Assembly (NCBI GenBank): GCA_030606585.1
Contig: JAUWGD010000002.1
Coordinates: 1 to 36,792 of the forward strand
DNA: 36,792 nucleotides
From: Dehalococcoidales bacterium
GTDB taxonomy: Bacteria > Chloroflexota > Dehalococcoidia > Dehalococcoidales > RBG-16-60-22
Direction: 5' to 3'
This document shows, one piece after another, positions 1 to 4,851 of this stretch. A program made the position numbers and the translations under genes. How positions within the stretch are numbered: the first letter of the stretch is position 1; each line of letters opens with the position of its first letter. The notes under the pieces were generated by a model that made no database searches, was not told the DNA's origin, and saw only the letters and a list, made by a program, of their open reading frames with translations.

Positions 1-125
1 TGCCCGGTGTCCGGCTGCGGCTTGGCGATAGGTGTCCAGTCGTTGCCGACATGCTCGTCCTTGCAGGCTATCTGACAGTTGTAACACCCGTTGCACCTGT
101 TGATGTCTATTACCATTGCCTTCAT
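1..125 (-). CDS. 4Fe-4S dicluster ferredoxin-type (BthL-like beta) subunit of a Mo/W oxidoreductase; N-terminal 41 codons only, gene runs off the left edge
   Basis: Not in the ORF track because it is truncated. The reverse complement of 1..125 reads ATG AAG GCA ATG GTA ATA GAC..., giving MKAMVIDINRCNGCYNCQIACKDEHVGNDWTPIAKPQPDTG. It carries a CxxCxxCxxxC cluster motif. A GGAGGTG RBS (rc of 133..139) lies 7 nt upstream of the ATG at 125..123. The N-terminus resembles my recollection of the P. acidigallici BthL start (MVIDVAKCQDCNNCFMGCMDEH). Confidence 0.6.
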   Translation of the reverse strand, partial: MKAMVIDINRCNGCYNCQIACKDEHVGNDWTPIAKPQPDTG

Positions 126-170
126 TATTCTTCACCTCCAAGCGGTTATATGTAAATCAAACCTTCAAAA

Positions 171-200
171 ATAATACACTCTGGCACTGGTTCCGGTCAA
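171..200 (-). promoter_or_regulatory. candidate sigma70 promoter for the ferredoxin-subunit gene
   Basis: On the minus strand: TTGACC (rc of 195..200), an 18 nt spacer, then TATTAT (rc of 171..176). GGTCAA (195..200) and TTGACC (215..220) also form a 6 bp inverted repeat around the -35. Confidence 0.3.
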
Positions 201-230
201 CTTTGCCGGTTTAATTGACCTATCCCCAGG

Positions 231-1919
231 TCACTCACCCGGAATTATAGGTAGAAGCAGGTATGACGCGAATTCCGGGTCATGGTGAATCTGGTGCATT
301 GTTGTCTTGCTGCTGCAGATGTGCAGGGAGCCGGGTCCGTTATCCATGCTGGCAATCTCTAACTCAAGGCGATGGCCGGCCCGGAACACGTTGGCGATAT
401 GGGAAAGGCTGATGGTATATTCATACACCTCACCCGGTTTTACCGGAATATTTTCGGTATGAATATGCCAGGGGTTCCACGGCTCGGACTTGCTCTCATC
501 GACGGCGCGGTGTGAGGCCTTGAGCCAGCCGGCTGTCAGCATCTTCTTCGTGCCGGACTGGTCGATATCCCGGAGCGTGACATTCCAGTTGGTGTCCTGC
601 TGGTCGATGGCGGCATAAAAACAGATGGCCATCGGCCCGATGACCTCCACGTCTCCGGTAAAAGGCGGCATTGAGTATTTAATCGAATTAACCTCGGAGG
701 TCTCGTCAAGCGGCTGCTGCACAAAGCAGTCGGGTCCCTCATTGGATATCGGCGCCTCGGTCATGAGGCGTCCCCGGCTGCGCAGGTAGTACTTCGTCCA
801 CTGTGTCCTGGCCAGGGGCCACTCGTTCTCATAGCGCCATTCGTTGATGCCGTTAACGTACAGCTTTATCGGCGCCTCGTCCATGATACCGTTGTCAATC
901 CCCTTCAGCCAGTAGTCGAACCACCGCAAGACCTCGTCATGCAGCTGGTACCAGGGGCGTTCGTCACTTAAAGCCAATGGCGCCATGATCATTTTCCTGG
1001 GCACGTCCACACCGTTGTAGAGCGCGAAAGCGCCATCGGGCCACATACCGACCCAGGGGCCGCCGGTATAGAGCGGCACCTTGATTTTATCGAATTTGGT
1101 ATAGGGTGACCGCTCCTGATAAAAAGGCCCGTCATTGGGATTAAAGAGAAAATCGGCGAAGAGCGGACTCTTCGTCGGGTAGCGGAGGCAGCTCCAGTAA
1201 ATACTGTAGACCATCAGGTCGGGGTCGCTGAGACGCTCCTTCCAGAGCTTCTCCAGCTCATCCGGGGGCGTGTTCCTAATCGTGGCGCAGACATGGTTCT
1301 TATGAGCGATGCCGCTGCCGTTGGTCTGCCCCGGGTCCATGCCCCGCCCGCTGTAAAGGCGATATATCATCGGATGGATAACGCCGCCGGAGGTGGCGAA
1401 CTGGGTATAGAGGTCGCTCCATACCTCCCAGGGGAAAATGGCCTTGAGGTGCGGCGGCTGCTCGGCGGCGGTATAGGTCTGGACGCCGGCCAGGTAGGAT
1501 ATGCCGACCATCCCAACATTGCCATCGCACCAGGGCTGGGCGGCAATCCACTCGATGATGTCATAGCCGTCTTCGCCTTCGGTATGACCGCACATCCCCA
1601 CGTACTCGCCCTCCGAGTCGCCGCAGCCCCGGACATCGGCGATAACATGGACATACCCGTTCCCCACGAACTGCCTGGTATTGCCGGACTCCATGGTGCC
1701 GTCCCAGACCAGAGAATTCTCACGTCCCTGGGGCTGCTTTACCGGCAGCACCTGTAAATCCTTGCCGTAAACGCACAGCGCCAGCAGCGCCGGGAATTTC
1801 CCTTCGGCATCAGGGCGGTATACATCAACCGCTAGTTGTACGCCGTCACGCATGGGGACAAGTACGGTTTCCTTCTCTCTGACCTGATACAACGGTTGTG
1901 AACCCTTCTCTTTTTTCAT
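231..1919 (-). CDS. CocE/NonD family (peptidase S15, X-Pro dipeptidyl-peptidase-like) serine hydrolase/esterase
   Basis: From ORF 231..1934. I prefer the ATG at 1919 (MKKEKGS...) because a GAGGAG RBS (rc of 1927..1932) precedes it. The 1934 codon is GTG and lies inside that RBS. Family motifs: VLVPMRDGVQLAVDVYRP, ADVRGCGDSEGEY and the nucleophile elbow GISYLAG. Confidence 0.8.
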   Translation of the reverse strand: MKKEKGSQPLYQVREKETVLVPMRDGVQLAVDVYRPDAEGKFPALLALCVYGKDLQVLPVKQPQGRENSLVWDGTMESGNTRQFVGNGYVHVIADVRGCGDSEGEYVGMCGHTEGEDGYDIIEWIAAQPWCDGNVGMVGISYLAGVQTYTAAEQPPHLKAIFPWEVWSDLYTQFATSGGVIHPMIYRLYSGRGMDPGQTNGSGIAHKNHVCATIRNTPPDELEKLWKERLSDPDLMVYSIYWSCLRYPTKSPLFADFLFNPNDGPFYQERSPYTKFDKIKVPLYTGGPWVGMWPDGAFALYNGVDVPRKMIMAPLALSDERPWYQLHDEVLRWFDYWLKGIDNGIMDEAPIKLYVNGINEWRYENEWPLARTQWTKYYLRSRGRLMTEAPISNEGPDCFVQQPLDETSEVNSIKYSMPPFTGDVEVIGPMAICFYAAIDQQDTNWNVTLRDIDQSGTKKMLTAGWLKASHRAVDESKSEPWNPWHIHTENIPVKPGEVYEYTISLSHIANVFRAGHRLELEIASMDNGPGSLHICSSKTTMHQIHHDPEFASYLLLPIIPGE

Positions 1920-1958
1920 ATTCGTGCTCCTCACCGAAAAAATAATATATTTTATAGT

Positions 1959-4085
1959 CTAGACTTTATAGACCTTACAGAGAAATGCCCTGAGAGATTC
2001 CGAACCGGTATGAGGGTCACAGGGCATATCCGCGGCTAAAACATTAACATTCGATTCCGTGAAGCCGTATTCCGGCGGCTCTTTTTCCGGGAACCACCAG
2101 CCGTGCTGGGCGTGAACGACGCCGGGGTGAATCCCCTCCGTAAGTTTCGCCCTCTGCTTAATCCTGCCCCTGGGGCTTTCAATCCAGACCCAGTCCCCGG
2201 ACTTGATTCCCAGGCCGCCCGCAGTATCGGGGTGGATTTCCATTATGGGGTCGGGCGTAATTATACGCAGCGATTTAATCTGCCTGCCCTCGGAACAAAA
2301 GTACCCCTGGATTCTACCGCCGGTGGTGATTATCAGGGGATATTCTTTAAATAAATCAGGCGTCGAATAAGGACTCTCCGGAGGTTCTACATAATAAGGC
2401 AGCGGGTCATAACCCATCGCTTCAAGAGTAGAACATCGCAGTTCAACCTTGCCGGAAGGCGTGTCGAACCCTTTTTCCTCGTATTTACGGTACCGCATCT
2501 TACCCGTCAGTATTCCCAGCTCCTTGAACTCCTCGAAGGTCAGGCCGGCATTTTCCAGCGTCCAGTCGCAATACTCCCTGACATCCTTCCAGGGGAAATC
2601 ATCGCCCATACCCAACCTGCGGGCAAGGTCGAACAGGATTTGCTTATCATCGCGGCACTCCCCTATCTCCGCTACTTTTTGCCTGATAAGAACGCACCAG
2701 CCCATGTGTACATCAGCCACCTCGTCATTTTCCAGCCAGCTCGATGCCGGAAGCAGTATATCCGCCATCTGGGCGGTGGGAGTCATGAACATATCGGTCA
2801 CCACCGTGAAATCGACCTTCCTGAATGCCTTTGCCGTCCTGACGGGGTCGGTCTGATTGAGCAGCGTGTTACTGCCCATGACGAACAGTGCTTTAACGGG
2901 GTACGGCTGCCCGGACATGATAGCGTCGAGTAAATGGCGCGGGTGAATGACGGAGTTGTCGAGGACTTTATACTTGCCGCGGCCAATCATCTTTGCCTTT
3001 ATTTCAGGCGTAATTCTTTCATGCAACGGGAGACTTTGCTCACCGTGGACGGTATGCGTTCTAACACCGGCCGGTGTTACCAGCGAAATATCGCCGCCGG
3101 GTACATCAAAATTTCCGGTGATGGCGGACAGGCAATGGACGGCGCGAACGGTTTGAAAGGTGTTTATATTCTGGTCAAGGGCATTGCCCCACTGTATACA
3201 GGCCGGTTTGGTCGTGGCGTACAGCCGTGCCGCCGCCCTGATATCTTCCGCGGGAATCCAGGTAATTTCCGCCACCTTTTCCGGTGGATACTCCTCGACC
3301 CTTTCCGCCAGCTCGTTGAAACCGGTAGTCCACCTGGCCACGAAATCTTTATCGTATAACTTCTCTTTAATTATCACATGGAGCATACCCAGTGCCAGGA
3401 CATCGTCAGTGCCGGGTCGAATCTGCAGCCAGTGGTCCGCCCGGGCGGCTAAATCGGTTTTCCGCGGGTCGATTACTATCAATTTGGCACCGTTCTTCAC
3501 CGCGAGGGTAACCTGATACCCGCACATGCCGTCGGCGGCGCCCGATTCCGCGATGTTACAGCCCCAGTTCAAGACGCACCTGGGTTTTACGCCACCGAAC
3601 CCGTAGTAATCGCAGACATGGAACTTGCCGCTGGTCATACGCGCCGCTACTATTCTGGGGAAATAACAGTTATTGATGATACTGAGGTGATTGGGAGTGC
3701 CCCAGCAATTGGAAAACCTCATATATAGAGGAAGGAGGGGCCGCCCCGTGCCGATAATAGTAGCTACCGACTCGGCGCCGAACTCCCGCTTGATATCAAG
3801 GAATTTCTCCGCGATAGCGTCCAGCGCCTCGTCCCAGCTGATTCTCTGCCATTTATTCTCCCCCCGCGCCCCGGCTCTCCTGAGAGGGTATTTCAGGCGG
3901 TCGGGATGATACAACAGTTCCACCGATGCTCTGCCCTTGGGGCAGATGTAACCGAGCGAAGTAGGACAGTCCGGGTCTCCGGTAATTTCAACCACTCTGC
4001 TATCCTGAATGTGCACGAGAACGCCGCAGACGCCGTGACACATTCGGCACGTGGATTTAACTACTTTTTCACGGTTATTTATCAT
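1959..4085 (-). CDS. cytoplasmic bis-MGD Mo/W oxidoreductase, acetylene-hydratase-like clade (709 aa)
   Basis: From ORF 1959..4163, start trimmed to the ATG at 4085 (MINNREKVVKSTC...). N-terminal [4Fe-4S] motif CRMCHGVC...CPKG. No twin-arginine signal. Blocks match my recollection of P. acetylenicus acetylene hydratase: YDKDFVARWTTGFNELAERVEEYPPEKVAEIT, FMTPTAQMADILLP, FPWKD, TPSGKVELRCSTLEAMGYDPLPYY, KEYPLII. The RBS is weak, so the start is uncertain by a few codons. Confidence 0.85.
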   Translation of the reverse strand: MINNREKVVKSTCRMCHGVCGVLVHIQDSRVVEITGDPDCPTSLGYICPKGRASVELLYHPDRLKYPLRRAGARGENKWQRISWDEALDAIAEKFLDIKREFGAESVATIIGTGRPLLPLYMRFSNCWGTPNHLSIINNCYFPRIVAARMTSGKFHVCDYYGFGGVKPRCVLNWGCNIAESGAADGMCGYQVTLAVKNGAKLIVIDPRKTDLAARADHWLQIRPGTDDVLALGMLHVIIKEKLYDKDFVARWTTGFNELAERVEEYPPEKVAEITWIPAEDIRAAARLYATTKPACIQWGNALDQNINTFQTVRAVHCLSAITGNFDVPGGDISLVTPAGVRTHTVHGEQSLPLHERITPEIKAKMIGRGKYKVLDNSVIHPRHLLDAIMSGQPYPVKALFVMGSNTLLNQTDPVRTAKAFRKVDFTVVTDMFMTPTAQMADILLPASSWLENDEVADVHMGWCVLIRQKVAEIGECRDDKQILFDLARRLGMGDDFPWKDVREYCDWTLENAGLTFEEFKELGILTGKMRYRKYEEKGFDTPSGKVELRCSTLEAMGYDPLPYYVEPPESPYSTPDLFKEYPLIITTGGRIQGYFCSEGRQIKSLRIITPDPIMEIHPDTAGGLGIKSGDWVWIESPRGRIKQRAKLTEGIHPGVVHAQHGWWFPEKEPPEYGFTESNVNVLAADMPCDPHTGSESLRAFLCKVYKV

Positions 4086-4311
4086 AGGTAAGATGGATGT
4101 GATAAAACATCTCTGGCGTAAACCAGTAATGACCATTTTAACCAGTTGAATTACCCTTGTCAAAGTCCGGGGATTTAAGCTAGCGTGATTTCAGCCTAAA
4201 AAACTACCCGTTTCCCCGTTAAAAAGCTGCATAGCTGACGGATTTTGCGAAATGTATTATAATACCGTAGTATATAATATAAATATTCAATATATTCTAA
4301 GGAGATGTTCG

Positions 4312-4851
4312 ATGAGCAAGGTCTCTAACCATGAGCTTCAATCGATGGCTGATGAGATAAGAGAACAGGCAGCTCAACTGAGAGTCTTAACTTTCCTGTC
4401 ATTCATTTACACCGCTGACGTCGTCAACAGGTATCTGGATATAGAAGTAGCCAGATATCCCGTCGGTCGAACCGGCTTTGGCGTCCTGCATAATCTGGTA
4501 CTGCACGGTGGTACAATGATGCCGACCAATTTAAGCGAGAGAATATTCCGCTCCAAACATGCCGTAACCAGAGTGGTTGATAACCTTGAGAAACTGGGCT
4601 TCGTGAAAAGAGACGCCATAGGCAGCGATCGCAGGGTCAGGAAAGTCAGCATAACAAAAGAGGGACTGGCATTCGTTAAAGAGTCGCAGGCCGCCGGTCA
4701 GCAACGCCTCGGTCATATGCTCCTGAAGCCCCTGAATCAAAAACAGATAGAGTCACTGGGCACGATGACGAAGCAAATAAGAGAGCACACCCTCAACCTT
4801 ATCGCCCATACACAGAACAAGGGTGAAATACCTCCATCGGAAGAAAGATAA
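4312..4851 (+). CDS. MarR-family transcriptional regulator
   Basis: From ORF 4252..4851, trimmed to the ATG at 4312, which is preceded by AAGGAG (4299..4304). Winged-HTH block: TNLSERIFRSKHAVTRVVDNLEKLGFVKRDAIGSDRRVRKVSITKEG. Confidence 0.85.
   Translation: MSKVSNHELQSMADEIREQAAQLRVLTFLSFIYTADVVNRYLDIEVARYPVGRTGFGVLHNLVLHGGTMMPTNLSERIFRSKHAVTRVVDNLEKLGFVKRDAIGSDRRVRKVSITKEGLAFVKESQAAGQQRLGHMLLKPLNQKQIESLGTMTKQIREHTLNLIAHTQNKGEIPPSEER

Follow-up and report, generated by a model that had tools for sequence, protein, structure and literature searches.

We examined a stretch of 36,792 bp from a Dehalococcoidales bacterium (assembly GCA_030606585.1, contig JAUWGD010000002.1; hereafter the window), which is the whole of contig C147 of a 1.76-Mb metagenome-assembled genome (MAG) of 86% completeness, and concentrated on a gene near its left end encoding a molybdenum- or tungsten-containing (Mo/W) enzyme that resembles acetylene hydratase (AH). 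This gene (1959..4085, minus strand; 708 aa; hereafter the query) encodes the Pfam domains Molybdop_Fe4S4, Molybdopterin, and Molydop_binding of a Mo/W enzyme with a bis-pyranopterin guanine dinucleotide cofactor (bisPGD), and upstream of it lies a promoter-like TTGACA-17-TAAAAT (4135..4163, minus strand), recognised by consensus match and conservation. A spacer of 39 nt (1920..1958, minus strand) with a GAGGAG ribosome-binding site separates its stop codon from the ATG of a gene for a CocE/NonD-fold protein (231..1919, minus strand; 562 aa; hereafter the esterase). Because this gap is short and no minus-strand terminator-like site was found in the 1920..1958 spacer, the two genes are likely co-transcribed. 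Beyond the esterase, a spacer of 105 nt (126..230, minus strand) holds a promoter (TTGACC-18-TATTAT at 200..171) and the start of a 5' untranslated region (5'UTR), both of the type that belongs to alpha1, an AthL-like alpha-subunit gene described below. Next comes the start of a gene for a BthL-type ferredoxin (beta) subunit with three clusters, of which 41 codons are present (1..125, minus strand) before the contig end cuts it off.

On the other side of the query, a divergent MarR-family regulator (4252..4851, plus strand) heads a cluster of DUF35, thiolase-like, two acyl-CoA dehydrogenase (ACAD), and M24 genes, and in relatives the locus is anchored by this conserved MarR gene. The M24 protein was considered as a dihydrophloroglucinol cyclohydrolase (DPGC) and ruled out, DPGC being a ‘cyclase’-family enzyme. 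The MarR-divergent intergenic region, to which the TTGACA-17-TAAAAT site belongs, is conserved with either the AH-like gene first (the window, L014, L029) or the esterase first (G258, G299, G273), and a strongly conserved block within it (ACGGTATTATAGTACATTTCGCAAAAT; 4164-4251 in the window) was found in all six genomes compared, which makes it a candidate MarR operator or MarR promoter. Elsewhere the window carries UbiD/UbiX, a further AthL-like gene with no beta, an alpha/beta hydrolase, two GlcDEF-like modules, acyl-CoA enzymes, an aldehyde dehydrogenase, and an iron-dependent alcohol dehydrogenase (Fe-ADH). The last 141 nt at its right end are common to the end of contig C194.

The best sequence match of the query in the PDB is AH of Pelobacter/Syntrophotalea acetylenica (2e7z, E 1.5e-126), in agreement with a preliminary description of this DNA made from the letters alone, and an AlphaFold model (31 homologues, pLDDT 86.8) is closest to the same structure (TM 0.91), with polysulfide reductase next (0.86). 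The two proteins share a four-domain bisPGD fold at ∼38% identity, a cytoplasmic and single-subunit character, an N-terminal CxxCxxxC...C cluster, Lys48, the Cys metal ligand, and Trp293 (AH numbering); the query (MINNREKVVKSTC...) has no twin-arginine (Tat) signal. Its FS0 motif is complete (C13-x2-C16-H17-G18-x-C20...C48) and Lys50 is present, so all the cysteines that in AH hold the N-terminal [4Fe-4S] cluster (Cys9/12/16/46) and the metal (Cys141) have counterparts. The retained metal-ligand Cys, which the preliminary description had placed in NNCYFP, aligns with Cys141 in YMCIGN of AH and is assigned to C140 by MAFFT as well. Cys140 is followed by Tyr141-x-Pro143-Arg144, giving a ligand loop of C-Y-x-P-R in the query versus C-I-G-N-T in AH. 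The cysteines C13, C16, C20, C48, and C140 are kept in the query and in ∼100 members of its clade, in which His17, Gly18, and Cys140-Tyr141-x-Pro-Arg are invariant.

The residue after the second cluster Cys, Asp13 in AH, is His in the query, as had been noticed earlier: CRMCHGVC aligns with CQSCDINC of 2e7z, and MAFFT also gives H17. We looked for an Asp at the catalytic position in both alignments to AH (2e7z and MAFFT) and found His17 instead, and the same replacement is seen in the query and 100 of 100 clade sequences. The hydrophobic ring around the substrate of AH, which we take to consist of Ile14, Ile113, Ile142, Trp179, Trp293, and Trp472, is also changed. Across the ∼100 clade members Ile14 is replaced by Gly18 and Ile142 by Tyr141, and Trp179 is replaced by Ala183 in about 90% of them. 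Lys48 (Lys50) and Trp293 (Trp299) are both kept in the clade, and the loops of Ile113 and Trp472 do not align with the query. Asp13 is specific to the AH subfamily and essential, the D13A variant being inactive (PMC12096430).

Trees, and motifs read by regular expression and L-INS-i alignment, place the query in a group distinct from AH. All 90 of the close homologues with a readable N-terminus (59-89% identity) carry C-x-x-C-H-G-x-C, and the query clade (99* support), which is rich in Dehalococcoidia, has CR[MG]CHG[VI]C in every member. It lies outside the genuine AH clade (AH, P0158, and P0224; 100* support), in which the motif is CxxCDI[NM]C. Among 109 motif-bearing sequences (50%-identity representatives, selected clade members, and AH), only five, AH included, have Asp after the second Cys; the position is very variable and His is its commonest occupant. 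More than 150 clusters at 50% identity outscore AH against the query, and the genome of the window (G000), which holds five AH/dehydroxylase-like genes (on C147, C27, C21, C119, and C64), has Asp at this position in none of the five. These alignments indicate that a large uncharacterised subfamily normally lacks the Asp, and the earlier proposal of a non-acetylene enzyme is borne out by the replacement of the AH-defining Asp13, Ile14, Ile142, and Trp179 and by the separation from the CxxCDI[NM]C clade. The query is related equally to AH and to the catechol dehydroxylases of gut bacteria, and for this reason it is probably not an acetylene hydratase. The subfamily was labelled ‘acetylene hydratase-like’ in Chloroflexi in 2013 (PMC3971608); the benzene-flavoprotein paper does not mention this type of enzyme.

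Two types of bisPGD molybdoenzymes remove a hydroxyl group from catechols (Maini Rekdal et al., 2020; PMC7028382). The Eggerthella type is Tat-exported and membrane-bound, and the Gordonibacter type (Dodh, Cldh) is smaller, soluble, and adjoined by a small 4Fe-4S protein and a major facilitator superfamily (MFS) transporter (PMC7028382). In the same work AH is the nearest characterised relative of the catechol dehydroxylases, many environmental homologues are uncharacterised, and sequences with CRMCHGGC-like motifs (e.g., from Shewanella woodyi) stand in the source-data alignments (PMC7028382). With the Cldh and Dodh sequences taken from the Figure 6 source data of that paper, BLASTP of the query gave 36.9% identity to Dodh (451 bits, E 4e-152), 36.7% to Cldh (441 bits, E 5e-148), 37.2% to AH (407 bits), and 40% to an unnamed Figure 6 sequence (506 bits). 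The query passes the homologue threshold of the same study (>29% identity and E 1e-55 or better to Cldh or Dadh).

In an L-INS-i alignment, four motifs are common to the query clade and Dodh/Cldh and absent from AH; they are our own reading of the alignment and not published catalytic residues. His follows the second cluster Cys (MCHGVC in the query, GCHNGC and GCHEGC in Dodh/Cldh), TGR is the second motif, C-[YM]-x-P-R stands at the metal ligand, and E-x-R-Q occupies a place where AH has C-Y-H-Q. Dodh and Cldh are, like the query, without a Tat signal, and their MFS-transporter context is echoed beside one orthologue of the query (89% identity, L091), which follows an MFS transporter and has a Lactamase_B gene nearby. 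The hosts differ, a gut actinobacterium for Dodh/Cldh and a sediment Dehalococcoidia for the query. In phylogenies that contained no Dadh-type sequences, the query fell outside the 100*-supported Dodh/Cldh clade. FastTree placed the query clade on the dehydroxylase side (92 support, unstarred), and in a quick IQ-TREE run (LG+G4) a 100* core contained the query clade, the dehydroxylases, and AH as a polytomy. The possible redox role put forward in the preliminary description is plausible, since the protein is as near to the catechol dehydroxylases as to AH. We infer that working like a dehydroxylase is the better-supported analogy, with membership in either characterised family not established.

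Both types of catechol dehydroxylases have an adjacent 4Fe-4S partner, with or without a membrane anchor, and the query clade departs from this arrangement. A search for CxxCxxCxxxC open reading frames (ORFs) within 3 kb of the gene, using a relaxed ferredoxin regular expression, returned none at 18 of 22 query-clade loci. Of the remaining four, the window has its beta start, L149 and L021 have betas that belong to other alphas, and L030 has a motif-bearing ORF of 88 aa and a larger GlcF-like ORF. The absence at the other loci is meaningful, since, where a paralogue in this genome does have a partner, the partner gene lies immediately beside it. The paralogue on C119 (L152, 273-2851) is of the Cldh/Dodh type, with 43% identity to Gordonibacter Cldh, the same degenerate cluster motif (TMWSAGCGSHGGC versus TMWSGPGCHEGC in Cldh), and a 114-aa Cys-motif protein overlapping its end by 4 nt; together these features make up the Gordonibacter-type dehydroxylase architecture, here in a Dehalococcoidia genome. 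The paralogue on C21 (L153, 1928-5890), with the motif CKSCHGGC, is preceded by a Fer4 beta and an NrfD/DmsC-type membrane anchor, and its alpha shows no obvious Tat signal; such a protein would be bound to the membrane yet apparently face the cytoplasm.

The ferredoxin start at the left end of the window encodes MKAMVIDINRCNGCYNCQIACKDEHVGNDWTPIAKPQPDTG, with the motif CxxCxxCxxxC, and its BthL-type identity, as described earlier, is supported by a full-length orthologue in a genome of the same genus (G258; 95% identical, 270 aa). The best PDB match of this orthologue is BthL of Pelobacter acidigallici (4v4c_B, E 2e-60), along the full length including the C-terminal Ig-like domain. Since the contig stops at base 1, the remainder of the gene is unreadable in the window. 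Our attempt to extend it leftwards found the continuation in no binned contig; ∼340 nt of the middle of the beta gene are absent from all of them, and only N- and C-terminal parts were recovered, the latter at the starts of C31 and of the reverse complement (rc) of C19. The end of contig C36 matches window bases 1-141 with 100% identity, and on that contig the identical beta start overlaps the stop codon of alpha1, an AthL-like alpha of 878 aa. All other beta genes with readable neighbours in this genome stand behind an AthL-like alpha or within the same array. The genome holds ∼12 AthL-like alpha genes and ∼8 BthL-like beta genes, and the density of bisPGD enzymes is unusual for 1.76 Mb. The alphas of the array belong to uncharacterised AthL-like subfamilies, unlike the characterised pyrogallol-phloroglucinol transhydroxylase AthL/BthL (4v4c).

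An order-wide search with the esterase returned four genomes with orthologues of 80-88% identity, and in all of them a MarR gene diverges from the esterase, which is followed by an alpha1 that is 88-92% identical to the alpha on C36. Two of the four continue into a beta, with 95-98% identity to that of the window over the first 41 residues, and the AH-like gene is absent from this locus in all four. The betas of G258 and the sister genomes thus stand directly behind an AthL-like alpha, whereas the copy in the window has no alpha in front of it. The 126..230 spacer offers a record of this change, being the promoter of alpha1 with the first part of its 5'UTR, both conserved in the sister genomes. 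At 142/141 the 5'UTR runs straight into the final ∼17 nt of the coding sequence of alpha1 (TTGGAGGTGAAGAATAA), a stretch that overlaps the beta start codon, and a GGAGGT ribosome-binding site marks each of the two breakpoints. In this MAG, contig ends share terminal 141-mers, and the beta end is an assembly branch common to C36. The sole path using each relevant contig once is rc(C147) - beta - rc(C19) - C36 - beta - C31 (L006, L009, and L132 cover the scaffolded contigs of this genome), and it gives the order AH-like gene, esterase, beta1, alpha2, alpha3, beta', alpha1, beta2, alpha4. A contiguous 38-kb contig of G258 reads esterase, alpha1, beta1, alpha2, alpha3, beta', beta2, alpha4. The sole difference in the array part is therefore which near-identical beta copy alpha1 precedes (beta2 here, beta1 in G258), a relocation that recombination between the beta repeats could produce.

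The esterase was correctly recognised in the preliminary description: the gene at 1919..231 encodes Peptidase_S15 and PepX_C domains and scores 321 bits against TIGR00976 (CocE_NonD; cut-off 66). Like CocE and 3ib3, which have the same two domains, it has the GxSYxxG nucleophile motif, with Ser141 in GISYLAG, and the motif is kept in most of a set comprising this protein and 22 homologues from the order, a few having Gly or Ala at the nucleophile. In 3ib3 the VHG motif presumably contains the triad His, and the position aligned with this His is Pro in the window protein and Pro or a gap across the homologues. No conserved His or Asp was found in the 3ib3 VHG region across the 23 homologues, and the CocE region itself did not align. 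Judged by these alignments, the family may depart from the classical Ser-His-Asp hydrolases. The preliminary description had the AH-like enzyme acting on the product of this esterase. The adjacency on which that proposal rested is real and recurs in one other genome (L029); each of the two is also found at this locus in the other's absence. The coupling is weak, and a functional dependence is unsupported by conservation.

The surroundings of the AH-like gene vary in the same modular way. Behind the MarR-linked promoter we found the AH-like gene followed by the esterase (the window and L029), by alpha1 (L014), or alone (L012), and in four further genomes the same promoter drives the esterase and alpha1 onward, reaching beta in two. 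At a threshold of 80% identity or more, orthologues are present in 2 of the 11 genus members sampled and in ∼10 of 110 genomes from the family. These comparisons show the AH-like gene to be a cassette of patchy distribution that has been inserted downstream of the MarR-linked promoter. AthL-like genes adjoin clade members in L014, L015, L024, L093/L094, L149, and C27, UbiD and UbiX in the window add to this polyphenol context, and aromatic and polyphenol catabolism is the theme that recurs among the gene contexts. The clearest polyphenol-style context found is the tight operon of L149 (1-10835; a Chloroflexota MAG from NCBI), in which a TRAP transporter (DctPQM), Amidohydro_2, AthL-like, and BthL-like genes precede a 66% homologue and an AMP-dependent CoA ligase. 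The order in L150 (7001-12172) is a 65% homologue, a metallo-beta-lactamase-fold gene, and a second AH-like gene (699 aa).

Several accounts of this locus have to be weighed, beginning with that of the preliminary description, which makes the AH-like protein the alpha partner in a heteromeric hydroxylase or hydratase with redox activity; its BthL-type beta would lie past the esterase, and the complex would act on the product of the esterase. The three genes do share a strand with short gaps, the FS0 cluster could dock a ferredoxin subunit, the characterised catechol dehydroxylases use 4Fe-4S partners, the 66% homologue in L149 lies 37 nt downstream of a BthL-like gene, and the order of AH-like gene and esterase is found again in L029. 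Against these stand the identity over 141 nt between this beta start and the one behind an AthL-like alpha, the same placement of the other located betas of the genome, the sister loci that run from esterase to alpha1 and beta with no AH-like gene, a spacer that fuses the alpha1 promoter to the alpha1 3' end, the 18 of 22 clade loci that lack a ferredoxin-motif ORF, and the position of the L149 beta directly behind its own AthL-like alpha. We regard such a heteromer as very unlikely; neither the subunit pair split by an esterase nor the pairing itself is upheld. In favour of the esterase-beta adjacency being an artefact of assembly or strain mixture at a repeated beta gene, C147 and C36 end on the same 141-mer, 72 terminal 141-mers are common to contig ends in the MAG, and no binned contig covers the middle of the beta. 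Nevertheless, the junction is internal to C147, 141 nt away from the contig end, and is hence covered by k-mers, it recurs without a mismatch across 3038 nt of an independently assembled Logan contig (L090), and a single contig path yields a coherent array that mirrors G258 except for the position of alpha1, which makes an artefact unlikely. On these sequence comparisons, the ferredoxin start is the beta of a transhydroxylase-like array and not a partner of the AH-like enzyme, and the arrangement of an ‘alpha and beta separated by an esterase’ is a by-product of the rearrangement of that array.

For the enzyme itself, we favour, by a narrow balance of probability, a soluble, partner-less, polyphenol-transforming enzyme, likely a dehydroxylase, that forms a distinct subfamily of the AH/catechol-dehydroxylase branch of the dimethyl sulfoxide (DMSO) reductase superfamily. 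Several observations weigh against it. Dodh and Cldh have lost the first cluster Cys (W-x-G-P-G-C-H), carry an N-terminal extension of ∼25-35 aa, and adjoin a small 4Fe-4S protein, whereas the query keeps all four cluster cysteines and has neither the extension nor the neighbour. The trees do not settle on which side, that of the catechol dehydroxylases or that of AH, the query clade falls, and the motifs shared with Dodh/Cldh recur in other uncharacterised sub-clades, so that they may be ancestral rather than diagnostic of dehydroxylation. The contexts of the closest orthologues vary widely, and the query clade has no characterised member, for which reason its substrate and redox nature are inferred. 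In L010 (6004-10112) and L011 (6121-10124), moreover, a gene for a tungsten-type aldehyde:ferredoxin oxidoreductase (AOR; AFOR_N and AFOR_C), itself preceded by a glyoxalase/VOC-like gene, lies directly upstream of 82% orthologues, at a distance of 42-57 nt (as called, the ORFs overlap in L010 and are 11 nt apart in L011). Such an arrangement would suit an aldehyde-forming hydratase, i.e., an enzyme that hydrates another unsaturated substrate to an aldehyde or ketone without redox chemistry, with His17 replacing Asp13 as the general acid/base. AH being the closest solved fold, the single-subunit character without a partner shared with AH, AOR genes within 2.3-3.5 kb in L017 and L024, and the aldehyde dehydrogenase and Fe-ADH in the window all fit this reading. 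We nevertheless consider a non-redox hydratase rather unlikely, given an acetylene pocket changed to Gly, Tyr, and Ala, metal-site motifs that match Dodh/Cldh and not AH, and an AOR adjacency confined to a minority of loci. A genuine acetylene hydratase with His in place of Asp13 would explain the best PDB match and the conserved Cys ligand, Lys48, Trp293, and FS0 cluster, and is scarcely credible for a protein outside the AH clade that lacks a subfamily-specific residue whose loss inactivates AH, has three more pocket residues altered, and is matched with higher scores by >150 clusters at 50% identity than by AH.

Under the favoured reading of a soluble polyphenol dehydroxylase, the query would act in the cytoplasm as a single subunit that contains a [4Fe-4S] cluster of its own and Mo- or W-bisPGD, the metal being ligated by Cys. 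A (poly)phenolic substrate would bind at the metal, and a ring oxygen would be removed or transferred (reductive dehydroxylation), with electrons reaching the metal from a soluble carrier via the enzyme's own cluster; such a carrier is proposed because no dedicated partner gene is conserved. Conceivably, the His17/Tyr141 clade represents a new partner-less polyphenol dehydroxylase or hydroxyl-shuffling enzyme that works alongside the expanded AthL/BthL-like arrays of sediment Dehalococcoidia and draws its electrons from free ferredoxin or from orphan BthL-type betas, a more specific proposal that we put forward tentatively. To our knowledge, catechol dehydroxylases have been characterised solely from gut Actinobacteria.

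The newness of the clade appears modest and lies in the combination of a dehydroxylase-like active-site signature, a complete FS0 cluster, and the lack of a partner. Within the polyphenol-type catabolic islands of Dehalococcoidia, the clade behaves like a mobile cassette. Caution should be exercised in annotating such genes as acetylene hydratase, or in inferring acetylenotrophy from them. If the clade does act on polyphenols, organisms of this kind would be specialised anaerobic polyphenol degraders, and abundant uncultured anaerobes would possess a Mo-based, oxygen-free toolkit for stripping or moving the ring hydroxyls of tannin- and lignin-derived phenols, which would have consequences for how carbon turns over in peat and anoxic sediments (the ‘enzyme latch’ question).

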